Shown here piece after piece: positions 9,708-28,943 of a stretch of DNA of 64,000 nt. The DNA comes from Longimicrobiales bacterium (GTDB lineage: Bacteria; Gemmatimonadota; Gemmatimonadetes; Longimicrobiales; Gaopeijiaceae). The position numbers were made by a program, and so were the translations under genes. The stretch spans positions 32,001 to 96,000 of the forward strand of contig CBDAON010000003.1 of the NCBI GenBank assembly GCA_965198065.1, read 5' to 3'. Position 1 is the stretch's first letter, and the number at the start of each line of letters is the position of its first letter. A model generated the notes under the pieces. It did not search any database. It saw nothing but the letters and a program-made list of their open reading frames with translations, and was not told the DNA's origin.

Positions 9708-11774
<2,067 letters not shown>

Positions 11775-17593: not shown

Positions 17594-17914
17594 CTAGCGG
17601 GATATTGGATCACGGGACCTCATATCATCCAGCCATCCGCTTTCCCGCCGCGCTTGCGCGAGCTCATAGCTCGCCTGCATCCGCATCCAGTGATCGGCGG
17701 CACCCCAGCCAATAGCCTCTAAAGCCAGCGCCATGTTCGCGGACACCCCTGCCTTACCGTTCAGTAGACGCGATAGCGTCCCCCGCTCGCACCCCAGACG
17801 CACGGCCGTCTCGGTCACATTCCATCCGACCTCTTCCATGCTCTCACGGATCAGTTCGCCCAGGTGCGGGGGGTTCAGCATCGGACCTACACGCTCGCTG
17901 TCGGTGTCGTTCAT
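17594..17914 (-). CDS. higA: HigA-family antitoxin
   Basis: NPPHLGELIRE...TLSRLLNGKAGVSANMALALE...WMRMQASYEL; GAAAGGAGG RBS. Confidence 0.92.
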   Translation of the reverse strand: MNDTDSERVGPMLNPPHLGELIRESMEEVGWNVTETAVRLGCERGTLSRLLNGKAGVSANMALALEAIGWGAADHWMRMQASYELAQARRESGWLDDMRSRDPISR

Positions 17915-17933
17915 GCTCTGTCCTCCTTTCCGG

Positions 17934-18206
17934 TCAGTGATAGTCGACCAAGTCCACATCCACGGCTTCGCCGTCCTCGAAGCGGAACACCACGCGCCAG
18001 TTGCCCGATACGCGCACACTCCATTGGCCCGCTCGGCTACCCTTCAACGGATGCAGCCGAAAGCCAGGCGCGTCAGCGCTACCGGGATGCGTCGCTTCCT
18101 GCAGCCGGAATAGAATGCGTCGAAGTCGTGGCACCAGATCCGCCGGCAGCCGAGCCCGCTTGTCCTGCTCGTGCAGCGCCCGCAGTCCCTTGTGCCTGAT
18201 CTTCAT
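17934..18206 (-). CDS. higB: HigB (RelE-family) toxin
   Basis: IRHKGLRAL...LHPLKG...WSVRVSGNWRVVFRF...VDLVDYH, upstream of higA. Confidence 0.92.
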   Translation of the reverse strand: MKIRHKGLRALHEQDKRARLPADLVPRLRRILFRLQEATHPGSADAPGFRLHPLKGSRAGQWSVRVSGNWRVVFRFEDGEAVDVDLVDYH

Positions 18207-18329
18207 AGATCTACTGTAGCGCGTCGCGTTACGCGCCGCCAGCGTTCCCCAAGTTTTTCGAAAGCCTGAATTGCCGAAGGCTTTGCGGCGCGATCTGGTC
18301 GGCTCCCGGTTCCTCCCCGGTCCTGAGCC

Positions 18330-18470
18330 AGTCCAATGTAGTCGGCCCATGCCTGCGTCATTTGTCGCCCCTCGGGCAGAAACGCGGTTCGGTTGTAGGC
18401 CCTTCCGCGTTGGGATCCCTCACCGCGTGGGTCAGCTGGTGCTCGATGAAATCCGGCCCGGTTGCGGTGC
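18330..18470 (-). pseudogene. C-terminal remnant of a P4-like tyrosine integrase
   Basis: IEHQLTHAVRDPN / RAYNRTAFL...MTQAWADY across frames. Confidence 0.75.
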
Positions 18471-18687
18471 GGATAGCCCGCGTTCGGGAAGACGTAGCGG
18501 CCATGCCCAGGCAGAGGGCGAACTCGAGAGATGGTCGTTCGGCTACCTGTCCACACACGTCTCACGCAGTCGCATGGATTCCCGGTCGTGAAGAGGGGTA
18601 TAATGAGGGGATCAAGGCGACGATCTGGCCGGGGCGGTCGAGCATCCGGATCTCTGCGACGCGGCACTCTCCTACCTGCTCGAGCGG

Positions 18688-19182
18688 ATGCGCTTGGAGG
18701 TGGAGGACCCGTCCGAGGCGGCGCGGCTGAAGCTGATGGTCGTGGACGAAGCCTGGCGCTACCTGCAGGACCCCGCCGTGCTGAATTACTTGGCCGAGGC
18801 GGCGAAGACGTGGCGGAAGAAGAACGCCGCGCTGGTCCTGGCCACGCAGTCCGCGGTGGACGTCACGGCCACGCCCGGCGCTGTGGCGCTCCTCGAGTCG
18901 ATCCCGACCAAGCTCTTCCTCGCGAACCCCGAGCTCCCCGACGAGATCGGGGCGCTGTTCCGGCTGAACGAGTCTGAGCTGGCCCAGGTCCGGGGCCTGA
19001 TCCCGAAGCGCGAGCTCTACCTCCGCCGCCCGGACGGGGCGGCGGTGCTCCGGCTCGAGGTCGATCCGGAGAGCTACTGGCTCTACACCTCCTCGGCGCT
19101 CGATGCCGAGGAGCGCGCCCGGGCCATCGTGGTTCTCGCGAGCCGAGACGATCCCACCCCCACCCCCAACGCAAGGAGCTGA
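18688..19182 (+). pseudogene. VirB4/TrbE-like T4SS ATPase, C-terminal fragment
   Basis: Walker B VVDEAWRYL, KTWRKKNAALVLATQS, TKLFLANP. Confidence 0.85.
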
Positions 19183-19188
19183 TACGCC

Positions 19189-19902
19189 ATGCGACCACCA
19201 ATAACACCCCTCGTTCTAATCGCGCTTCTCCTGGCTGCCCTCCCTGTTGCGGCCACCGCGCAGCAGGAGAACGACGACGCGTTCCTGCGGGTGACGGTCC
19301 CCGAGGAGGGCGAGGACCGGATCCACCGGCTGCGCACCCGGGTCCGCCACACGACGGTCATCGTGCTGCCGCCCGGCGAGAACATCCTGGACTTCGTGGC
19401 CGGCGACTCGGAGTACTGGCATCTGACGGGCGCGGCGAATGTCGCGTTCCTGAAGCCCCTCGCTTCGGACGCGGCGACCGACGACGCCCGTGCTGTGTTC
19501 GTCTACGCCGAGCCCGGCCACGAGACCGCCACCGCGCTCCGCTCGTGGGGCGATGCGCACCGGCGGCTCTGGGATGCGCTCAGGGAGCGGGGCCGATCCG
19601 TCGAGGTCGTGGCCGTCGTCCGCACCCCCAGGGAACTCGGACGGGCACGGACGATCCTCGGGAACTGGGCCGAGGCGCCCGCCGCCTCTGGCGCCGTCGA
19701 TCCGGCCCGCCGCGAGATCGCCCGGATCGAGCAGGCGATCCGCGGCATGGACGACGCGGTGATCGACAAGCATGGCGGGCTGCAGGGCTGCCTCGAGCGG
19801 ATCGTCGAGCTGGAGGACCGGCTCCGTTCCGCGCGCCCCGGAACGACGATCGACGGGTTCGCGGCATGGCGTTCGAGCCGGCTTCCCGGAGGCACATCTT
19901 GA
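19189..19902 (+). pseudogene. VirB9/TrbG N-terminus fused to an unrelated C-terminal fragment
   Basis: Signal peptide; RVRHTTVIVLPPGENILDFVAGDSEYW...AFLKP; abrupt change after ~19480. Confidence 0.7.
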
Positions 19903-19963
19903 CCGCCGGTCGCCAGGGGCCGACGCCGATCCGGAGCTTGCGGCCGTGGACGGGAGCGACCCC

Positions 19964-21322
19964 CATAAGCGCTAACTTGTTTGCATTGCCATGGTGTTGT
20001 ATAGTGAGGGCATGAGCAGAACCGTGACAGAGGCGCCGACAAGTGAGGACTGGGACCTGCTAGTATCGTTCTTCCCGAGCAACTGGCAGGAGCTGGCAGC
20101 GGAGACGGGAGCGCTGCGAGGGTTGCGCAAGGACAAGTCGCCGGAGAAGCTGCTGCGGACGCTGCTGATCCATCTCGGATGCGGGCATTCGCTGAGAGAA
20201 ACGGTCGTGCGGGCTCGGCAGGCGAGCTTGGCGGATCTGTCGGACGTGGCGCTGCTGAAGCGGCTCCGGAAATCGCGGGACTGGCTGTATGCGTTGTGCG
20301 TGGAACTGTTCCGGGAGCACGGCATCGCGGTCTCGTCGGACGGGGGCTTCCAAGTGCGGGTCTTGGACGCCACGACCGTGCAGGAGCCGGGCCGGACCGG
20401 ATCGTTGTGGAGGCTGCATTACAGCGTCAACCTGCCTTCGTTGGGCTGCGACTTCTTCAAGCTGACCGGGACGGAAGGGTCCGGGGCGGGCGAGTCGTTC
20501 AAACAGTTTCCGATCCGTCCGGGTGACTACGTGCTGGCCGACCGGGCCTACTCGAACGCGGCCGGGATCCAGCATGTGGCGATGGCCGGCGGTCACGTAA
20601 CGGTGCGGGTGAACACCGGGACGCTGCCGCTGGAGACCGCGGACGGTCAGCCGTTCGAGTTGCTGACAGCCGTGGAATCCCTCGAGCGGCCTGGACCGGT
20701 CGGCGCATGGGCGGTGCGCACGGCGGCCAAGGCCGGCCCCCCGGTCGCAGGCCGAATCTGCGCCGTGCGCAAGACCGACGAAGCGATCGCGGCCGCGCAC
20801 GCCAAGATCCGCAAGACAGCCCAGCGCAAGCAAAGCCAGGTCCGGCCGCAAACCCTGCATTTTGCCCGCTACGTCATCGTCTTCACGACCTACCCCCCGG
20901 AGGAGTTCTCGCCAGCCGACGTTCTGGAATGGTACCGCCTACGCTGGCAGGTCGAGCTGGTCTTCAAGCGCTTCAAGTCCCTGGCCCGCCTCGGACATCT
21001 GCCGAAGTATGATGACGAAAGCGCGCAGGCCTGGCTGTACGGCAAACTGCTCGTGGCACTGCTGGTCGAGAAAGTCGTGCGCCACGCCGTGGCTATTTCC
21101 CCCTGGGGATACGACGTCGCGACAACGTCAGCCCCGCAGCCCTTGGCGTGACTTCAAGTTCGCACTCCACCAAGTCGCACGGGCCATCGAACCGGAGTTC
21201 TCTCTCGAAAAGATGATCCGCGAGTGGAGCAAGATCTCGGCTTCCCTGGCCGAACCTCCAAGGCAGAGACTCAACCAGGTGGACCGCCACTTCCCGATAA
21301 ACTACACAAGTTAGCGCTTATG
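19964..21322 (+). mobile_element. Complete IS4-family insertion sequence
   Basis: Perfect 17-bp TIR CATAAGCGCTAACTTGT / ACAAGTTAGCGCTTATG; 11-bp target duplication GGAGCGACCCC (19953-19963, 21323-21333). Confidence 0.93.
19991..21151 (+). CDS. IS4-family DDE transposase (start probably 20012)
   Basis: VLDAT, LADRAY, YRLRWQVELVFKRFKS (YREK motif). Confidence 0.95.
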   Translation: MVLYSEGMSRTVTEAPTSEDWDLLVSFFPSNWQELAAETGALRGLRKDKSPEKLLRTLLIHLGCGHSLRETVVRARQASLADLSDVALLKRLRKSRDWLYALCVELFREHGIAVSSDGGFQVRVLDATTVQEPGRTGSLWRLHYSVNLPSLGCDFFKLTGTEGSGAGESFKQFPIRPGDYVLADRAYSNAAGIQHVAMAGGHVTVRVNTGTLPLETADGQPFELLTAVESLERPGPVGAWAVRTAAKAGPPVAGRICAVRKTDEAIAAAHAKIRKTAQRKQSQVRPQTLHFARYVIVFTTYPPEEFSPADVLEWYRLRWQVELVFKRFKSLARLGHLPKYDDESAQAWLYGKLLVALLVEKVVRHAVAISPWGYDVATTSAPQPLA

Positions 21323-21605
21323 GGAGCGACCCCCCGTCTCGGCATGCCTCGATCGGCATCGGGGAGGATCGGCATGGGCACGCCCATGCCACCCTCCCCG
21401 GCGGGGTCGCTCCCGAATCAGGTATCCGTGCCGGAAGGCCGTTCAGCGCCGCTGCGGGGCGGCGGATCGCCAGTTCGCCAGCTGTCCAGCCGGTGTGTCC
21501 GCGCTACCGCAGAGGACCGGGCGCGGACCCGCGGAGAACGCCAGACCGTGGGCTGCCGGGAACGTCGAGCCATGAGTCGGCGTTTCGGATCCCCGGAGAC
21601 GTTGG

Positions 21606-21715
21606 GATGAGGTAAAGCCCCGGTTCGAGAGTTCCGGGCTCGATCTCCTCCCCGGCCTTGAGCCGGTCCAGATAGTCGGCCCAAGCCTGCATCATGTGTC
21701 TACGCTCGGGCAGCG
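21606..21715 (-). pseudogene. C-terminal remnant of a P4-like integrase
   Basis: LPERRHMMQAWADYLDRLKAG. Confidence 0.7.
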
Positions 21716-21739
21716 GCGGGTCGCGCATCCGTCGAAACC

Positions 21740-22108
21740 TTGCCCGCGACTTGGCGGAGACAGGCCAAGGCGCTCCGCCGGTACGGGGGCGAGACTCCGG
21801 CCGTGGCGCTCGAGAGTTGCGCGGCCGAGCTCGAGACCACGCTCCGGGAGCGGGACGAAACCACCCTCTCCCTGACGGAGGCCGCCAGGGAGAGCGGCTA
21901 CTCCGCGGACCACCTCGGCCGTCTCGTCCGCGACGGTAAGATCCCTAACGTCGGAAGGCCCGGCGCGCCCAGGATCACCCGCAGGCACCTCCCCCGGAAG
22001 CGAATGGCCCAAGTGCCCGCCAATCCGCCGCTGGTCAAGAAGCCTTCCCCACGCCAGGTTTCAAACGCGCAGATCGTGCAGTCCATCATCGAGAGAGGAA
22101 TCGAATGA
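21740..22108 (+). CDS. HTH DNA-binding protein, excisionase-like
   Basis: LSLTEAARESGYSADHLGRLVRDGKIP; overlaps the integrase start (ATGA). Confidence 0.7.
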   Translation: MPATWRRQAKALRRYGGETPAVALESCAAELETTLRERDETTLSLTEAARESGYSADHLGRLVRDGKIPNVGRPGAPRITRRHLPRKRMAQVPANPPLVKKPSPRQVSNAQIVQSIIERGIE

Positions 22109-23268
22109 TGGCACGCACGAAACGAAGCCGGCGCAGCTATGGCACCGGCGAATGGGGCCGGAACCGGGTACGGGTCTTCCCGGATCCCAAGACCGGCCTG
22201 TTCCAGATCGAGTGGCGCGAGCGTGGGCGCAGGCTGAGCCGGTCGCTCAAGCACCGCGACTGGGCTCGGGCGAAGAAGCAGGCGGACGAGCTTGCCGCAG
22301 GCTTCGCCGGGCCGGTGATGGAAGGCAAAGCGGAAGCCGAGCCCGAGCCGCTCACTCTGGAGACGCTTTTTGACATCTACGGTGAAGAGGTGACGCCCAC
22401 CAAGCGTGGGCAGTCGCGGCTGCACGACAGGGCCGCGACGGGGATGTTCCTCGGTTGCTTCGGCAGGGACCGGAAGCCCGCAACGCTCTCCCAGCGCGAC
22501 TGGGACCGGTTCATCCGAGAGCGTAGGGCGGGCAGGGTTGGCCCGAGCGGCAAGCTGGTATCCGACCGGATGATCGAACGGGACCTCAAGTTCCTGATCG
22601 CGGTCCTCAACTGGGCCGCAAAGTCCAGGGACGAGCAGGGCCGCCTGCTTTTGGAAGCGAATCCCCTGAGAGGACTGAAGACGCCCAAACAGAAGAACCC
22701 GGCCCGAATCGTCCTGGCCGAGGAGGAGTACCAGGCGCTTCTACGGGTGTCCCGGCAGGTCGACTGGCGGTTCCGCGTCGCGCTCGTCCTCGCCCACGAG
22801 ACGGGACACCGCATCGGCGCAATCCGCAAGCTCTGCTGGTCGGACATCGACATGGAGGGCAGAACCATCCGCTGGCGCGCCGAACACGAAAAGTCGGGCT
22901 ATGAGCACCGGACACCGGTGACCGCCGAGGCGCTTGCCGCCCTGGAGGAGGTGCGAAAGAGGAATCCCGGTATCGGGCACGCGCCCGTGCTGCCCTCGCC
23001 GCAGGATCGCTCGAAGTGCGTGGGCTCCTGTCAGGCGTACGGGTGGTGGCACAAGGCGGAGGGGCTCGCGGGGCTTGAACCCAAGCGTGGGAGAGGCTGG
23101 CACTCCCTGAGACGAAAGTTCGCCTCCGACCTCATGGACCAGCCGCTCAAGGTGCTCTGCGAACTCGGCGGCTGGAAGGAGGCCAAGACGGTGCTGCAGT
23201 GCTACCAGCGGGCCGACGAAGGGCAACTCCGGAAGGCCCTAGATCACCGCCGCAGAGTTCGCGCCTGA
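22105..23268 (+). CDS. Tyrosine recombinase/integrase
   Basis: Catalytic TGHRIG (R), GWHSLRRKFA (H-x-x-R), LGGW and CYQ (Y). Confidence 0.92.
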   Translation: MMARTKRSRRSYGTGEWGRNRVRVFPDPKTGLFQIEWRERGRRLSRSLKHRDWARAKKQADELAAGFAGPVMEGKAEAEPEPLTLETLFDIYGEEVTPTKRGQSRLHDRAATGMFLGCFGRDRKPATLSQRDWDRFIRERRAGRVGPSGKLVSDRMIERDLKFLIAVLNWAAKSRDEQGRLLLEANPLRGLKTPKQKNPARIVLAEEEYQALLRVSRQVDWRFRVALVLAHETGHRIGAIRKLCWSDIDMEGRTIRWRAEHEKSGYEHRTPVTAEALAALEEVRKRNPGIGHAPVLPSPQDRSKCVGSCQAYGWWHKAEGLAGLEPKRGRGWHSLRRKFASDLMDQPLKVLCELGGWKEAKTVLQCYQRADEGQLRKALDHRRRVRA

Positions 23269-23321
23269 GCCCAATCAGCGGGAATCAAACGGCGGGAATC
23301 CAGTCCGAAATGCCCGTAAGT

Positions 23322-24488
23322 TTAATTACCCCAAGCAGATGCAAACCTGTCGACTTCTGCCGCCTCGACCCTGTTCTGTACCACATGTGCGAGGGCCGCT
23401 TCGATGACCTCGCGGGGATGATCCGTTTCCTCGGCCGCCCAGTCCCGGAAACTGGACCTGAAACCGTGTGGAACGGCCGCGATCCCATGCTTCCGGAACA
23501 TCCGGCGCAGTTGCTTCTCCTCGAGCTGCTTACCGACTCGATTGGGAAACAGATACGGACTGGTTCCCTTCACCAGCGTCCGTGCCCCGTCCAGAATCTC
23601 CAGTGCACGACCACACAGCGGGACCCGGTGCTCGCGGTTCGCCTTCGTCCGCCTGGCCGGGACAGTCCACACACCCTCGTCCCGATCAATCTCGGTCCAC
23701 TCCGCCCACCGCACCTCACCCCATCGTGCCGCCGTCAGCACCAGGAACTCGAACGCCAGCCGGACGGCCAGCGGCACCGTTGATGCCCGCGCGGTCTGGA
23801 TGGCCGCGGCCACCTCTCGATGCGGCAGCGCCCGCATGTGCTGCACGACGTCACGCTGGGGACCCAGGACCGGGTCGATCCGGTTACAGGGGTTGTCGAT
23901 CCGGAACTCCATCGCCACCGCCCACTCCAACACCGCGCGGATGCGCTGCCGCAACCGCCGGGCGGTGTCCGCCTTCGTGTGCCAGATGGGAGCGAGGATC
24001 TCCAGCACGTCGGCGCTAGTGACCTCCGAGACCGGCATCTTCCCGATGCGCGGGAAGGCGTACCGCTCGAAGGTCAAGATCCACTCGCGGCCGTGCACCC
24101 GACTTCGCCAGCCGGCTTGCTTCTGTTCTACTACACGCGCGGTGGCTTCGGCGAAGCTCGGTACGCCCTGCCTACGACGCTTCTCGGCAAGCGGGTCGCC
24201 GCCCTAGCGGGCCAGCTTACGGTTGGCCAGCGCCTTTTCCCGGGCCTCGGCGAGGGAGACCAGCGCGACGCTGCCGAGCCCGAGCTCGCGGCGCCGACCC
24301 CGGATGACCAGGCGCTGAATCCAGCTTCGGGTTCCGCTTGGCTGGACGAAGAGGTACAAACCGTTGCCGTCCGCGTGTCTTCCAGGCGGGGCAGTGCGCA
24401 CGAAGGCGGCCGACAGGGCCTTGTCTGGATGGCGGCCCTTGGGCTTGGTTTTCCGCGGCGGAGTGGCCTTGTTCGTTACAGTAACCAT
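23322..24488 (-). pseudogene. P4-like integrase (arm-binding domain) with an in-frame TAG at 24204-24206 and a truncated C-terminus
   Basis: HADGNGLYLFV...LGLG...SLAEARE; TAARWGE, HGFRSSFRDW, EAALAH; both ORFs lie in the same frame. Confidence 0.88.
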
Positions 24489-24636
24489 CCCCGCATAATA
24501 TAGGGGATGGAGGCGGATATCAATGGATGTTGTGAGCGGAGTGCGTTGCTAGTCTATGCTCGTAACTTACTGTTATAAAAGTCAGTTATGGACTTAACTG
24601 CGAACTGTGTACTTGACGCAAATACGGATACCTTGA

Positions 24637-25056
24637 ATGGGTGACAGACCGGCGCATCCACAGGTTTGGGCAAGAGTGAACGCCCATGTAGATGAAGGTG
24701 TGGCGGATCTCATATCCGCCCTCTCAAGATTCAAGGGCCTACGTACCCTCGAAAGCTGTCAGGGTGAGCCAGACGGTGCGGCCTGGGCATGCTTCGTGGT
24801 GGGAGCAAACGTGGGGTGGAGGCCGCTAGCGGATCTCGTGTTGGGTTACCTGGGACCGGCTTTGGCCTCAGACCTTGGAGACATGGTGGACCTTTCGATT
24901 CACGCTACGGAAGCGGGCGGGGCGCAGGGAGAACTCACGGTGCGCTCGGAAGCGATGAGCGACACCGTGAGCCTCCTGCTCACACTATCGGCTGATTGGC
25001 AGCCTAGAGCGGCTTACCAAACGTGCGAGTGTTCTTGTGACACGTCTTACACATAG
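24637..25056 (+). CDS. Hypothetical cargo protein
   Basis: 139-aa ORF with VDEGVADLISAL...TLESCQG motif, just inside the left TIR. Confidence 0.65.
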   Translation: MGDRPAHPQVWARVNAHVDEGVADLISALSRFKGLRTLESCQGEPDGAAWACFVVGANVGWRPLADLVLGYLGPALASDLGDMVDLSIHATEAGGAQGELTVRSEAMSDTVSLLLTLSADWQPRAAYQTCECSCDTSYT

Positions 25057-25234
25057 CCAACAGGTTTCCGAGGCCGTCACCGCCACCGCGGGTGCGGTGG
25101 TGGGCATGCCAGTCGGAACCGTGCAACCCGTGCTTGCAACGACCAGTGTGGTGCGAGCACACCGACATGGTGCACTCGCAACGTCCGCCTGCACGAATAA
25201 AGAGAAGGCGTCGAGTATCATTGGAAACAGCCAT
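25004..25234 (-). CDS. Small HNH endonuclease-like protein
   Basis: RAGGRCEC...HAHH...GGGDGLGNLLAMCKTCH; GAGG RBS before MAVSND. Confidence 0.8.
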   Translation of the reverse strand: MAVSNDTRRLLFIRAGGRCECTMSVCSHHTGRCKHGLHGSDWHAHHRTRGGGDGLGNLLAMCKTCHKNTRTFGKPL

Positions 25235-25405
25235 TGTAATGCGTCCTCGATTTGGAAAATGAATGTGAATGAAAGCACGTTTCAAAACGCCTTCTTAAAC
25301 GACGTTTTAAACGACGCATTAAATGGCGTTTTAAGAGCACTTTCTTTTCGTGATTCTTTTCCTCGACGCAATTACACGATATACTTTATCTGTAAATGCG
25401 TGAGG

Positions 25406-25508
25406 TGCGGACGGCCGGAGTCGAACCGACACGGGGCGTCAAGGGTCCGAGAGAACCCGCCCCACCAGCTTCCAAAGCCAGCGTGTTTACCAGTTTCGCC
25501 ACGTCCGC
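25406..25508 (-). tRNA. Atypical tRNA-like gene: Leu-type body, UGG (Pro) anticodon, extended variable arm
   Basis: GCGGACG/CGTCCGC-A acceptor; D-arm GCGAAACTGGTAAACAC; CTGGC-TTTGGAA-GCTGG anticodon arm; GTCGG-TTCGACT-CCGGC T-arm; 103 nt. Confidence 0.85.
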
Positions 25509-25570
25509 CAAACGCCTGGGGGCAGCCTTACGGCCACCCCCAGGAAGACCCCGGTTACGGGGTTAGGATT

Positions 25571-25582
25571 TTATGGCGGCAT
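25571..25582 (-). other. Minigene Met-Pro-Pro-stop with a strong Shine-Dalgarno
   Basis: GAAAGGAG-ATCACC-ATG CCG CCA TAA, followed by two stem-loops. Confidence 0.65.
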
Positions 25583-25662
25583 GGTGATCTCCTTTCTGGC
25601 GTGTCAGCGCCGGTTAGGGTGAGTGGTGCGCCCCCATCGTCGGAAACGGCGGTGGGGGTCTG

Positions 25663-26127
25663 CTATTCTAGTCCACCGATCTCCTCTTGCTGTGCACCTC
25701 CCGGCCTCGTCCATTCTCGGAGACCGTATTCGCCGGTATCAACCCGAATGAACTGGCCACCCTCCTTGTGTGATCGTCGGAGCATAGCGCCGAGGCTGTT
25801 GGCTAACTTCCTTCGGCCTTTCGCATACGGAAGTCCACGCTTCAGTAATGCGTCGGCGATATCTCGTGGTTGCATCGGTTGGCGGACCTCAAGCAAGCAG
25901 GACTCAGCAACCCCCTGTAGGGTAAGGCGGGGATTACTGTACCGACCGCCGTTAATAGACGGGGGTGCCTCGGACGCCTCCTCGGTTATGGTAGCCGGTG
26001 CTTGCGCTTCGGGTTCGCTCAGGTACTCGAACAGTATCTCTCGCGTGTTGCGGAGCTTGCGGGCGCGAGCTTCGTGGAATTGGATATCGCGATCAAGTCG
26101 CTGGATTAGGTCCATGTCGCTGGGCAT
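25663..26127 (-). CDS. Winged-helix (HARE-HTH-like) DNA-binding protein with an N-terminal coiled coil
   Basis: LEVRQPMQPRDIADALLKRG...FIRVDTGEYGLREW. Confidence 0.7.
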   Translation of the reverse strand: MPSDMDLIQRLDRDIQFHEARARKLRNTREILFEYLSEPEAQAPATITEEASEAPPSINGGRYSNPRLTLQGVAESCLLEVRQPMQPRDIADALLKRGLPYAKGRRKLANSLGAMLRRSHKEGGQFIRVDTGEYGLREWTRPGGAQQEEIGGLE

Positions 26128-26269
26128 GTTCGCATCCTACCCTAAAGGGGTTAATGTGACCGAAGTTAACGGCAGCGTGCGATCTTTGCTAGGGTGTAGT
26201 GAGGACAACGCGACGACAGGCCGATCTTGCTTGTGGAATCAGTGTTAATCGTATTATAGGAGGACCCAT

Positions 26270-26461
26270 ATGGAGGCCGAAGAAAAGCCGACACCGGACA
26301 ATAAGAAAACCGGTCCTGACGCAGATCGCGTGAAGCTCGAAGGAGACTGGGAGGATGCGGTGAAGAAGGCCCTGAAAAAGAAAAAGCCCCCCGAGGGCTG
26401 GCCGCAGGAGGACGAGCAGAGCGGGGAGTCTGTCAGTGATTCAGGATCGGACAGAGACTGA
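26270..26461 (+). CDS. Small charged hypothetical protein
   Basis: AGGAGG RBS; RVKLEGDWEDAVKKALKKKKPPEGWP. Confidence 0.65.
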   Translation: MEAEEKPTPDNKKTGPDADRVKLEGDWEDAVKKALKKKKPPEGWPQEDEQSGESVSDSGSDRD

Positions 26462-27265
26462 GTGCCAGCCACCTATCGAATGCGTGTGTGCCCTTACCAC
26501 TGGCCCGAGTTGCTGGTCGAAGCGCTTAAACCGGGGGTTGTTCATGCGCCTGTACCAGTAGATCGCTGCGATGGTTCTGCCGATACCGTCTGCCGCTTGA
26601 ACCCCATGATACCACTCCGACGGTACGAGGAGGGGGATCTCTGTAACGCGAGCGTCGGCTGTCCGAAAAACAGGGTCCGAGTAAATAAGACTCTGAGCGG
26701 ACGCAAGAACGCGCGTATTCTGAGTCTCGGTGCGGCGGTCCATTATCACCACCCCCCGGCCCACACGCGATCCTGCTTTGTCGTTAAGATATTTTTCAAA
26801 CCTACGCAGTGTACTTTGCATGAGGCTGGTATAAAGCCCGGAGTAGGAGTGGTTCGCACGAGTAGAGTCTTTCTTGACTCCGTTTGCAAAAACGGCGCCA
26901 CCGCACGAACCAACCAACCCGAGCACCTGAGATATAAAGCGGATGTCGCGTCGCGTTCTGAGCGTCTTCGCTTCAAAGCGTTCCGGGCGGATACCGTGCA
27001 AGGTCTTGGCGCGAGATATTTCCCTGCTATAGAAACGACACTTCAAGCGGAAATAGGACCGGTCGAAGTCACGCCACCGTTCGCCAGGAATGACAAATCC
27101 CGCAAAACCGAAAAGCGGGTGGTGCTGGTGTCGCGGATCGGTGGGATCATAGGGGCCTGGATGACCGAATTCATCGAGGTAGAGAAGGTACATGGAGGCA
27201 TGCCCCGGTACAAAATACACAGAGCCCGCGCCGAAGCGCGAGCCCTGGGGAACTGCTTGACCCAA
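26441..27265 (-). CDS. DUF3800-family protein (probable start MYLLYLDE at ~27193)
   Basis: YLDEFG N-terminal motif and GVQAAD C-terminal motif. Confidence 0.85.
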   Translation of the reverse strand: MGQAVPQGSRFGAGSVYFVPGHASMYLLYLDEFGHPGPYDPTDPRHQHHPLFGFAGFVIPGERWRDFDRSYFRLKCRFYSREISRAKTLHGIRPERFEAKTLRTRRDIRFISQVLGLVGSCGGAVFANGVKKDSTRANHSYSGLYTSLMQSTLRRFEKYLNDKAGSRVGRGVVIMDRRTETQNTRVLASAQSLIYSDPVFRTADARVTEIPLLVPSEWYHGVQAADGIGRTIAAIYWYRRMNNPRFKRFDQQLGPVVRAHTHSIGGWHSVSVRS

Positions 27266-27384
27266 GCATCCGGAGACACAAGGGCTGGCAGTATTACAAC
27301 AGATTGCTATACACAGTATAGCCTGTCAAGGATCCCCTTTGAAGGACTCCTGGGTACTCCTGGGTACTCTGGGGGGAACTTGGT

Positions 27385-28365
27385 TCATGGATGACGATAC
27401 ATGAGCCGCTTCCCCTCGGAGCCCCGGATAGCGGTCTTGATCCTTTCTCCGTCGTCAATCTTGCGAGTATTCCACCGAAACTCGAACTCGGACACGTAAC
27501 GGTGCAGATGCTCTTTGCTGACGTGGTGGAAGGTCCCCATGACGCCCCTCTTGAGAAGGGCAAAGAACCCCTCAACGGTGTTCGTTGTGGCGAGCACGTC
27601 CCCGTCCATGCGTGCATACTCGTTCTGCGAGTGACGAACCGTGTGATGCCCGTTGGCAAACTCGCGTCCCACTGGTATGTAATGCCTGGCTTCGTCAGTA
27701 TGGAGCCGAGCCGCTTCTGGGTCCACGTTCTCCCGAAGGTTGCTAGCGAGGTTCGCAGAGGTCACGTTCGTTACGACCTTGGCGCGCGCCTCTCCGTCCC
27801 GCTCGACGATGGCAATGACGGGCGTCTTGTTGTCCATACGGCGAAACCCACGCGGACGACGCTTCCCGCGCACCGAGCGGGGGCGGATTTTTCCACCGAC
27901 GAAAGCTTCATCCGCCTCGACATCGCCAGTAAGTGGACCGCCCGTGTTGGCTGCACCATTCATCGCGTATCGGACCCGGTGCATGAGGAACAAGGCGCTC
28001 TTGTACGTGAGGCCGGTTTGCCGTTTGATCTGCAAAGCGGACACGCCCTTCTTGCTGGAGCACGCCGCCCAAAACGCAAAGCACCAATGCCGCATGGGAA
28101 TCCGGCTGTCCTCCATGATGGTTCCGATGCGGACCGTGAACTGACGGGCGCACCCACGGCACCGCCAGAGGTACCGGGCGTTCCGCTCACCGGTATTCCG
28201 ATCCTTCATCATGTAGACATCGACATCGCCACAACGGGGGCACGACGGCTCCCCCTCCCAGCGCATGTCTTCGAGGAATTCGACCGCTGTGTCTTCGTCG
28301 GCACAGGCCATTGGGATGGCCCCGACGATGTCCGATTTATCGCCCGCGATCTTCGACATTTTCAC
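27385..28365 (-). CDS. IS1595-family transposase
   Basis: Zn ribbon CPRCG...CRGC, KGVSALQIKR, VEADEAFVGG, LHTDE, TNTVEGFF, YVSEFEFRWN. Confidence 0.95.
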   Translation of the reverse strand: MKMSKIAGDKSDIVGAIPMACADEDTAVEFLEDMRWEGEPSCPRCGDVDVYMMKDRNTGERNARYLWRCRGCARQFTVRIGTIMEDSRIPMRHWCFAFWAACSSKKGVSALQIKRQTGLTYKSALFLMHRVRYAMNGAANTGGPLTGDVEADEAFVGGKIRPRSVRGKRRPRGFRRMDNKTPVIAIVERDGEARAKVVTNVTSANLASNLRENVDPEAARLHTDEARHYIPVGREFANGHHTVRHSQNEYARMDGDVLATTNTVEGFFALLKRGVMGTFHHVSKEHLHRYVSEFEFRWNTRKIDDGERIKTAIRGSEGKRLMYRHP

Positions 28366-28487
28366 TCACCTTTGGAGGCTTGAATTCACACTCTAAAGAT
28401 AAGGGATGTACGTGTTTGCGTCAAGTATCTAGTTCCGACTTAACTGGACGATACTGTACACCGGTCCAGATAGTCTGCCCATTCCTG

Positions 28488-28943
28488 GGTCGTGCGTGGC
28501 TGCCCGAGCACCCGGCACGCTCTCCTCTCCGACGCCCCGAGCTGCTGACGTACACGCACCACACAACGTCGTCGGCCCTCGGGGCTCAGAAGTTTCCCTT
28601 GGCCGCTTCCTCCACGATCAGCTTGTCCAGTGTCAAGTCCGCCACTGCTCGCTTCAGGCGCCCGTTCTCGCGCTCGAGCTCCTTCAGGCGCCGTGCCTGG
28701 CTCACCTTCATCCCGCCGTACTCCCGCCTCCACCGGTAGTACGTCTGCTCGGTGATGCCGAGCTCCCCCCTGATCAGCTTCACGGATTTGCCGCCGGCCA
28801 GACCGACCTCTGCCTCCCGCACTGCAGTGATGATCTGCTCCGGAGTGTGTCGCTTCCTTCCCATCCTGACCTCCTCGCTGAAAAGCTTCGGACCAGGTCG
28901 ATCCTAACATTGCACCTGGTCTCGTTTCAGCGGGTCAGGTCAG
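28488..28943 (-). mobile_element. IS3-family left-end fragment (orfA 28586-28864 and start of orfB)
   Basis: MGRKRHTPEQII...TYYRWRREYGG...AAKGNF; IRL TGACCTGACCCGCTGAAACGAGACCA. Confidence 0.9.

Follow-up and report, generated by a model that had tools for sequence, protein, structure and literature searches.

The locus considered here raises the question of what a tRNA gene that joins a leucine-type body to a proline anticodon does in a bacterium whose chromosome contig already carries three normal tRNA-Pro, five tRNA-Leu, and four tRNA-Ser genes. The gene lies in a 64,000-nucleotide stretch of DNA from a Longimicrobiales bacterium, referred to below as the window. Because the host already has normal tRNA-Pro, tRNA-Leu, and tRNA-Ser genes, the tRNA in the window is accessory; no second copy was found in the host genome with a covariance model of its family.

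25406..25508, minus strand: class II (Leu-body) tRNA with anticodon UGG, A37, A15:U48, and A73, CCA not encoded (RF00005, sequence, and family model)
25472..25474, minus strand: anticodon UGG (Pro), from the sequence and from contigs
25431..25464, minus strand: 34-nt variable region, folded as a 5-bp outer stem, a 5-nt 3' bulge, a 6-bp inner stem, and a 4-nt loop, unbranched

G1 is at 25508 and A73 at 25406, which places the gene on the minus strand. The tRNA matched Rfam RF00005 with 41.4 bits (E value, 2.3e-5; gathering score, 29 bits); ARAGORN at default settings called zero tRNAs in the window, and the whole-gene fold had a z score of -1.5. The original prediction described a 103-nt cloverleaf with G1:C72, A73, a Leu-like D-loop, and the anticodon loop TT-TGG-AA, and every position that it listed was present. 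The acceptor stem has 7 bp, with G1:C72 and C2:G71; the D arm is of the Leu type (A14, A15, G18, G19, U20, and A20a, with U8:A14 present); the 7-nt anticodon loop, UU-UGG-AA, has A37; the variable region ends in U48; the T stem has 5 bp; and A73 is followed by CCT. The one D-stem mismatch that had been claimed is C11.A24. It is nearly private to this copy, occurring in 2 of the 122 family members described below, and the position pairs in 119 of them, mostly as C-G or U-A. Judged from its sequence, the copy in the window may be slightly damaged. The CCT in place of CCA, to which attention had also been drawn, is there but has no meaning in this genome, because none of the 47 scored host tRNA genes encodes CCA and only 37 of the 122 family members do.

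The anticodon was re-checked on contigs from other data. A contig of run X1, which may be the source sample, covers positions 24547 to 28487 with 0 differences, and RNA contigs of runs X8 and X9 span the anticodon, again with 0 differences. All three read UGG, which excludes a sequencing or assembly error at the anticodon, and the alternative of TAG or TGA was not borne out.

The variable arm had been described as branched. It folds instead as a single interrupted stem (-18.2 kcal/mol; z score, -2.4), and a multibranch fold was found in 0 of the 36 long arms of the family. The length of the variable region in the family is bimodal, with an ordinary region of 13 to 21 nt in 86 of 122 members and a long arm of 27 to 40 nt in 36. 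A 3'-heavy bulge was present in 20 of the 36 long arms, compared to 8.5% of shuffles.

According to the available text of PMC9976931, leucine identity in Escherichia coli depends on A73, A15:U48, G18G19, and A20a but not on the anticodon or the sequence of the arm, C2:G71 repels SerRS, and proline identity depends on G72, G35, G36, A73, and G15:C48, with G37 as an added determinant; m1G37 aids prolylation (PMC8643618, available part). The tRNA in the window has the complete Leu set, and its Pro set is limited to the anticodon (G35, G36) and A73. In place of the Pro marks C1:G72, G15:C48, G37, and a short variable loop, all of which are found in each of the three normal tRNA-Pro genes of the host, it has G1:C72, A15:U48, A37, and the 34-nt region. 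The Leu anticodon mark, A35, is absent, the anticodon being UGG. Marks of Ser, Sec, and allo-tRNAs (G73 or U73; 8/4, 9/3, or 8/5 geometry; a Sec-like D stem) are also absent; A73, 7/5 geometry, and C2:G71 are found instead.

The covariance model, built from 30 long-arm family members, scored the five host tRNA-Leu genes at 69.8 to 79.5 bits, the next tRNA at 57.8 bits, the tRNA-Ser genes at 46 to 55 bits, and tRNA-Pro(UGG) at 52.3 bits despite its matching anticodon. In 149 relatives, 28 of the 28 top matches that were checked were tRNA-Leu. The Leu-type body of the original prediction was therefore supported, since host Leu genes scored above Ser and Pro genes. A second premise, that G1:C72 bars ProRS, turned out to be weak in this host. 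Its ProRS belongs to family I (archaeal/eukaryote type), and no protein exceeded the family II cut-off. Family II enzymes require C1:G72, whereas G1-C72 is neutral (human) or positive (Aeropyrum) for ProRS of the archaeal/eukaryote type, and the anticodon, A73, and G1-C72 can suffice for family I (PMC9976931, available text). Charging with proline, or dual charging, is therefore possible in this host. Among five hosts whose loci bear the leader described below, ProRS is of family I in two and of family II in three; the Leu marks are constant across both ProRS types, a pattern that suggests LeuRS as the shared reader. The host encodes LeuRS, EF-P, and Rho. By analogy with the E. coli identity rules, it is likely that the tRNA in the window is charged with leucine by the host LeuRS.

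A search pattern consisting of a Leu-type D loop, a Pro anticodon, and a class II arm matched 9 viral loci (UGG) and 103 genome loci (NGG). The family was found in Alphaproteobacteria, Gammaproteobacteria, Acidobacteriota, Planctomycetota, Gemmatimonadota, Chloroflexota, Verrucomicrobiota, and others. With the window copy included, 99 of 113 distinct sequences passed a pairing filter (at least 6/7, 4/5, and 4/5 pairs) and 14 were dropped; UGG was the anticodon in 93 of the 99 well-paired NGG sequences. A metagenome scan open to 24 non-class-II anticodons yielded 120 loci from 11 of 64 collection parts, and 84 of 110 distinct sequences passed the filter, UGG forming the largest group (30), with CGC (14), CUC (6), and GCC (5) among the others. 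A viral control scan for UCG and UUG gave 1 well-formed tRNA among 15 loci.

The pooled family has 122 distinct well-paired UGG members. Positions that the search did not force are strongly conserved in part: A15:U48 is present in 122, U8:A14 in 121, A73 in 118, G1:C72 in 104 (C1:G72 in 9), and C2:G71 in 99. In the homologues the search pattern itself required G18G19 and A20a, and position 37, which was restricted to purines, is A in 96 members and G in 26. C1:G72 occurs together with G37 in only 4. Random decay of stems in homologues, the mark of a pseudo-tRNA, had been named as evidence that would count against the gene; the stems covary instead. Across 30 of the 36 long-arm members, both partners vary at 19 of the 25 paired positions, and pairing is kept in 93.9% of cells, a percentage inflated by the filter, compared to 38 to 53% in slid controls. 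The closest relative of the window copy is 70% identical, and close DNA homologues were absent from 100 relatives (two short tRNA-fragment matches only) and from plasmids, with short arm matches only in phages. Within the host phylum 6 of 401 genomes matched, and within the host's own family 0 of 70. Neither the exact D-arm pattern in viral contigs nor a leader-plus-tRNA pattern search gave any match. The tRNA family is real, selected, and mobile.

Several other unusual tRNAs were encountered in these scans. Metagenome loci L234 to L353 contain further class II tRNAs in which a Leu body bears a non-Leu anticodon; in one group of close relatives the anticodon varies among CGC, CUC, UUC, and UGC (Ala and Glu codons), and others have GCC, GCG, GUC, or GUG, mostly without an IS1595 transposase in the available flanks. 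In 11 of the 122 members (L145, L173, L176, L190, L208, L213, L257, L259, L283, L304, and L345), a second T-arm motif lies upstream of the tRNA at a distance of at most 200 nt, and pieces resembling only the T arm and acceptor of a tRNA occur in two tRNA-less elements (L395:1425-1495 and L397:1954-2027). Both resemble the irregular polycistrons in the available part of Mukai et al. 2017. Phages carry a large, well-paired tRNA family with an Asn anticodon (GUU), G73, U1:A72, and a 25- to 34-nt variable region (viral loci such as L005, L007, L021, and L093), and other viral loci, such as L022, L044, L060, and L069, have tRNA-like RNAs whose acceptor, D, and T arms are fixed but whose anticodon/variable region is free and unpaired.

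The tRNA in the window is cargo of a complete 3.8-kb IS1595-family transposon at 24600-28437, a setting that the original prediction had overlooked.

24592..24599 (left) and 28438-28445 (right), no strand: 8-bp target duplication (ends could shift by 1 base)
24600..24627, no strand: terminal inverted repeat, tRNA side
24637..25056, plus strand: 139-aa cargo ORF of no known family
25004..25285, minus strand: short HNH-like ORF 3' of the tRNA (weak, E value of 0.041; start at 25234 or 25285)
25663..26127, minus strand: 154-aa HARE-HTH winged-helix protein, upstream of the tRNA on the same strand
26270..26461, plus strand: 63-aa conserved small protein, in divergent orientation
26441..27265, minus strand: DUF3800 cargo gene
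27385..28365, minus strand: IS1595-family transposase with Zn ribbon and DDE domains (NF033547, over cut-off)
28410..28437, no strand: terminal inverted repeat, transposase side

One contig joint leaves out exactly 3,846 bases, the length of the element plus one duplication, at a depth of 95 compared to 8.7 for the filled form, and host contig C4 has an empty paralogous site. From the transposase end the cargo runs DUF3800, the divergent 63-aa ORF, the HARE-HTH gene, the leader, the tRNA, the HNH-like ORF, and the 139-aa ORF. The tRNA is internal to the element, about 0.8 kb from its end, which excludes an attachment-site remnant. Homologues of the HNH-like and 139-aa ORFs are found together in locus L165, and homologues of the 63-aa protein in 13 of 55 fully flanked family loci; look-alikes of the latter are all annotated "hypothetical protein." Proteins of the 63-aa type recur in many such elements and are encoded on one or the other side of the tRNA. 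A close homologue of the HARE-HTH protein was not found.

The association with IS1595 extends to the family. An IS1595 transposase is present in the flanks of 38 of the 55 family loci with at least 3 kb on both sides and, in the metagenome set, where many contigs are short, near 18 of 30 UGG tRNAs versus 4 of 54 others. A pair of inverted repeats was identified in 27 of 60 loci tested, the partner being sought only downstream of the transposase, and 33 loci gave no pair; all 27 pairs enclose the tRNA, and 21 have a 7- to 8-bp duplication (L164 and L195 are doubtful). In a quick transposase tree, the sister of the window element is L182 (Gemmatimonadota), which has a long arm and the same Met-Pro-Pro leader. 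A single origin of the long arm or of the leader was unsupported on this tree, where both are scattered and the long arm changes 12 times. A genetic lock, in which the transposase needs Leu at a CCN codon, was rejected, as 48 transposases have no conserved Leu/Pro column; no element-encoded protein requiring Pro-to-Leu substitution was found in this comparison of transposases, the cargo being too diverse to be compared in the same way.

The surroundings of the element are also rich in mobile DNA. More than ten other IS1595-like transposase matches are present in the host genome, and to the right of the element lies another insertion sequence with more than 20 identical copies. Positions 17594-24488 and 28485-28864 form a dense mobile region with a HigB-like toxin and HTH gene, VirB4/VirB9-like remnants, a DDE transposase, and two tyrosine integrases, and group II intron domains lie at 9708-11748 (minus strand). 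Within the element, an AT-rich segment between the tRNA and the HNH-like ORF (25285-25332) has three 12-nt repeats that also form an inverted repeat. In a viral contig, a related IS1595 element carries a Leu-body UGC tRNA with a degenerate T loop (L360:3497-3581, minus strand), preceded by three genes that by eye resemble a toxin, an HTH antitoxin, and a SecB-like chaperone.

Upstream of the tRNA, a three-codon reading frame was noted in the window copy before homologues were examined.

25589..25597, minus strand: Shine-Dalgarno sequence of the mini-ORF
25571..25582, minus strand: mini-ORF Met-Pro-Pro-stop (CCG, CCA, UAA), ending 62 nt before G1
25547..25564, minus strand: leader hairpin 1 (fold)
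25515..25544, minus strand: leader hairpin 2, strong, without a U-tract, ending 6 nt before G1

The motif was afterwards widened to a Shine-Dalgarno sequence with at most 5 codons before Pro-Pro and at most 2 after, within 200 nt upstream. In this form it was found in 18 of 118 UGG members (17 of 117 without the window copy) versus 13 of 6,624 control windows from the same loci, and it was absent from 100 of the 118. The host background is 16 Pro-Pro-stop frames in 6.1 Mb. Among other anticodons the motif occurred once in 58, before a tRNA that itself has a Pro anticodon (AGG). The leader was more common with a long arm (13/35) than with a short arm (7/83). The 21 accepted leader loci, which form 15 clusters at 70% identity, are mostly alphaproteobacterial and so are not fully independent. 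The peptides include MPP, MPPP, MKPP, MRKPP, MKPPP, and MTEPP, and the prolines directly abut the stop in all but MPPPAS. Over 24 listed frames, three of which are probably chance, the Pro codons are CCG (27), CCU (15), CCC (11), and CCA (8), and the stops are UAG (12), UAA (8), and UGA (4). The use of all four Pro codons and all three stops argues for selection on the peptide rather than on the RNA sequence.

The genes ahead of the leaders share a helical N terminus and a winged-helix-like end, and the HARE-HTH gene of the window has the same layout. The mini-ORF begins in the +1 frame near the end of the upstream gene in 9 of 15 cases, mostly overlapping it; in L144 it is the in-frame end of the upstream gene, and in L143 the upstream gene itself ends in Pro-Pro-stop. 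As a prediction test, 401 Alphaproteobacteria were searched with the upstream winged-helix-type protein alone. Of the five new loci recovered, the two closest have a UGG Leu-body tRNA together with a Pro-Pro-stop leader, whereas both features are absent from the three distant ones. Cognate-codon leaders for other anticodon groups amounted to two weak cases, both lacking a Shine-Dalgarno sequence, among the loci examined, so that covariation of leader and anticodon is not demonstrable beyond Pro.

Ahead of the tRNA, 19 of 20 leader loci have a strong hairpin that lacks a U-tract. An intrinsic terminator between leader and tRNA was rejected, with a U-tract in 0 of the 20, and C-richness after the leader stop is mild. 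In the free RNA of the window copy, the start of the leader and its Pro codons are predicted to pair with bases around G1, and blocking the ribosome footprint raises the predicted probability of the acceptor stem from 0.00 to 0.91. However, such a switch is not a property of the family, as a gain of >0.3 was obtained in 4 of 21 loci versus 21 of 105 shuffles; when the window copy's own leader was shuffled, the gain also exceeded 0.3 in 2 of 5 cases. A conserved short ORF with a Shine-Dalgarno sequence and regulatory codons, as in a leader-peptide attenuator, is present, and the family has a leader that is codon matched and conserved at the peptide level. The original prediction had mentioned relief of polyproline stalls as one possible role, and this idea gains unexpected support from the conserved Pro-Pro-stop leader, which had escaped notice there.

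Some RNA data were available for the locus.

25405..25628, no strand: leader and tRNA stretch covered by metatranscriptome contigs (X8, 25405-25628; X9, 25416-25623; 0 differences)

X8 and X9 are two sponge metatranscriptomes of one study, and their contigs reveal neither strand nor ends. They hint at, but do not prove, one transcript of about 220 nt that spans leader and tRNA. Neither data set had a contig on the other cargo or the transposase, an uncovered part that alone proves nothing. A control over the host tRNA array (contig C4, 1710874-1713237), whose 18 genes make up about a third of the host tRNA genes, gave only short conserved pieces, so that the presence of the host in X8 and X9 is not established; another symbiont with an identical element may be the source of the RNA.

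These results suggest, with a probability of roughly one-half, that the gene encodes a Pro-to-Leu mistranslating tRNA that is switched on by stalling at its Pro-Pro leader and that relieves the stall by which it is induced. A ribosome lingering on Pro-Pro or Pro-Pro-stop would raise the level of the tRNA. In the window copy, the ribosome would mask Pro codons that are otherwise paired with the 5' end of the tRNA, freeing the acceptor stem to fold, and elsewhere in the family it would probably shield a C-rich Rho site or the precursor. Host LeuRS would leucylate the UGG tRNA, and the product would insert leucine at CCN codons, most or all of which a UGG anticodon is assumed to read. The leader would then be read partly as Met-Leu-Leu, stalling would drop, and output would fall, a loop that would set a low dose of Pro-to-Leu substitution. 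The pay-off would be a bypass decoder that needs no ProRS, proline, EF-P, or m1G37/TrmD (A37 being the predominant base), of use where proline decoding is impaired, for example by starvation, loss of EF-P, or an attack on tRNA-Pro. In E. coli, few termination stalls are stronger than that at Pro-Pro-stop, where EF-P does not accelerate release (10.1101/751305, available part). At tnaC and mgtL, a stalled ribosome favors downstream expression by denying access to Rho (PMC5021804 and PMC12856214, available parts).

The same gene could also be a remodeled accessory tRNA-Pro, whose Leu-derived body is charged with proline, or with both amino acids, and whose leader senses a shortage of Pro-tRNA and adds supply. 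A supply sensor would look like a Pro-codon leader, G35, G36, and A73 are present, the host ProRS is of the family for which G1-C72 is neutral or positive, and some members do have C1:G72 (9/122) or G37 (26/122). However, the two are rarely combined, the Leu-type A15:U48 is invariant where a tRNA-Pro would have G15:C48, three of the five leader hosts have a family II ProRS that needs C1:G72, the hosts keep a LeuRS that ignores the anticodon, and all three normal tRNA-Pro genes are in place here; we consider this reading unlikely. Slightly less likely still is a conditional toxin for abortive infection or addiction, held off by the Pro-Pro leader until translation is disturbed, for example by a phage, whereupon Pro-to-Leu errors throughout the proteome would stop the cell. 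Induced allo-tRNA mistranslation killed E. coli (PMC5389517, available text), the element is sporadic in the phylum (6 of 401 genomes), and domains of toxin-antitoxin or defense type (SocA/Panacea, PIN, MqsA with SecB, Fic, P63C, Bro-N, and IrrE) occur near family members. Against this, no conserved antitoxin or sensor protein accompanies the tRNA, PADLOC returned one weak match for five cargo proteins, and leucine at the leader's own codons should shut the switch, which would suit dosing better than killing.

A tRNA that does not decode at all, either a decoy for anticodon nucleases or modifying toxins directed at tRNA-Pro or a structural or regulatory RNA of the transposon, seems a shade more doubtful than the toxin. 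Its bulged arm would then block use by the ribosome or bind a partner. The oversized arm (36/122) with its 3'-heavy bulge, more frequent than in shuffles, is not needed by LeuRS, related elements carry other anticodons or T-arm-only pieces, the RNA contigs span unprocessed leader and tRNA, and several of the irregular tRNAs studied by Mukai et al. 2017 did not function in translation (PMC5389517, available text). Yet a decoy would more simply copy tRNA-Pro, 86 of 122 members have an ordinary variable region, and the family retains the full LeuRS set as well as U33 and R37 in a 7-nt loop. A decaying pseudo-tRNA or captured tRNA-Leu fragment with a chance change of anticodon would account for the C11.A24 mismatch, the ARAGORN miss, and the modest whole-gene fold, but it is very improbable and for the family is largely refuted by 122 members with covarying stems and a fixed anticodon, by a nearest relative that is only 70% identical, by the conserved leader, and by the single well-formed tRNA in the UCG/UUG control scan.

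The mistranslating tRNA proposed here has partial counterparts among known systems. Encoded mismatch between identity and anticodon is known from the Streptomyces tRNA-ProA/tRNA-ProX system and from the nematode nev-tRNAs, which are eukaryotic. ProX puts Pro at other codons via a dedicated synthetase, whereas the tRNA in the window would remove Pro by using host LeuRS. The element is a candidate member of the ISNha5-like group of IS1595-family transporter elements, which have CGG ends. It shares with them the transposase, inverted repeats of about 27 bp, an 8-bp duplication, a length of 2 to 5 kb, and passenger genes, but its passenger is a non-cognate tRNA module. Bacterial tRNA-Leu of class II, the isotype with the best score, has the same acceptor, D arm, A15:U48, A20a, A73, and long arm; the tRNA in the window differs in G35/G36 and A37, in its bulged 34-nt region, and in being mobile, accessory, and preceded by a leader peptide.

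The TnaC peptide ends in Pro-stop. Like the UGG-family leader, tnaC of E. coli and mgtL of Salmonella are short ORFs whose proline codons pause the ribosome and favor downstream expression (PMC5021804 and PMC12856214, available parts). However, the UGG-family leader has only 3 to 8 codons, no U-tract terminator was found in 20 of its loci, its Rho site is putative, and the gene that it would control is a tRNA reading the sensed codons, which closes the loop. The nearest published tRNAs are "tRNA2, tRNALeu (7/5)" of Mukai et al. 2017 (PMC5389517), which share the Leu-type 7/5 body and a non-Leu anticodon, and the variable arms in the available supplement resemble those of the short-arm UGG members. 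All 16 Leu(7/5) rows there have the ochre anticodon UUA rather than UGG, and the string UGG occurs once in the supplement, inside an ordinary word, and never as an anticodon. The tRNA in the window, being 7/5 without a Sec-like D stem, is unlike the 8/4 or 9/3 allo-tRNAs. As far as the available text of PMC5389517 extends, its tRNAs were found in transcripts, allo-tRNAs are tied to toxin-antitoxin and transposon genes and insert the amino acid of the body in E. coli, and there is no bulged long arm, IS1595 placement, leader peptide, or Leu test of Leu(7/5). The available parts of the reviews PMC11415595 and PMC7609411 give no account of the UGG family or its leader. A literature search that covered papers outside subscription found no Leu-body UGG tRNA, no tRNA cargo of IS1595, and no Pro-Pro leader ahead of a tRNA gene. 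The family belongs with the natural missense tRNAs, to which the Pro-Pro-stop leader is a new addition.

Annotation hides this family, as default ARAGORN misses the long-arm form and calls the short-arm form plain tRNA-Pro. Few examples of encoded, regulated mistranslation are known in bacteria, and its adaptive value is debated. A more ambitious reading, put forward tentatively and with the odds somewhat against it, is that the family is a mobile, self-regulating mistranslation device that bypasses failed proline decoding in many phyla and whose sensor is rewritten to Leu-Leu. At about 220 nt the module is small; it depends on host enzymes alone and travels on a transposon, and the proposal predicts leucine at CCN codons, induction when ribosomes stall at Pro-Pro, and self-limitation. 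If true, it would represent a new way around the polyproline problem, as well as a tRNA gene governed by a leader made of its own codons.
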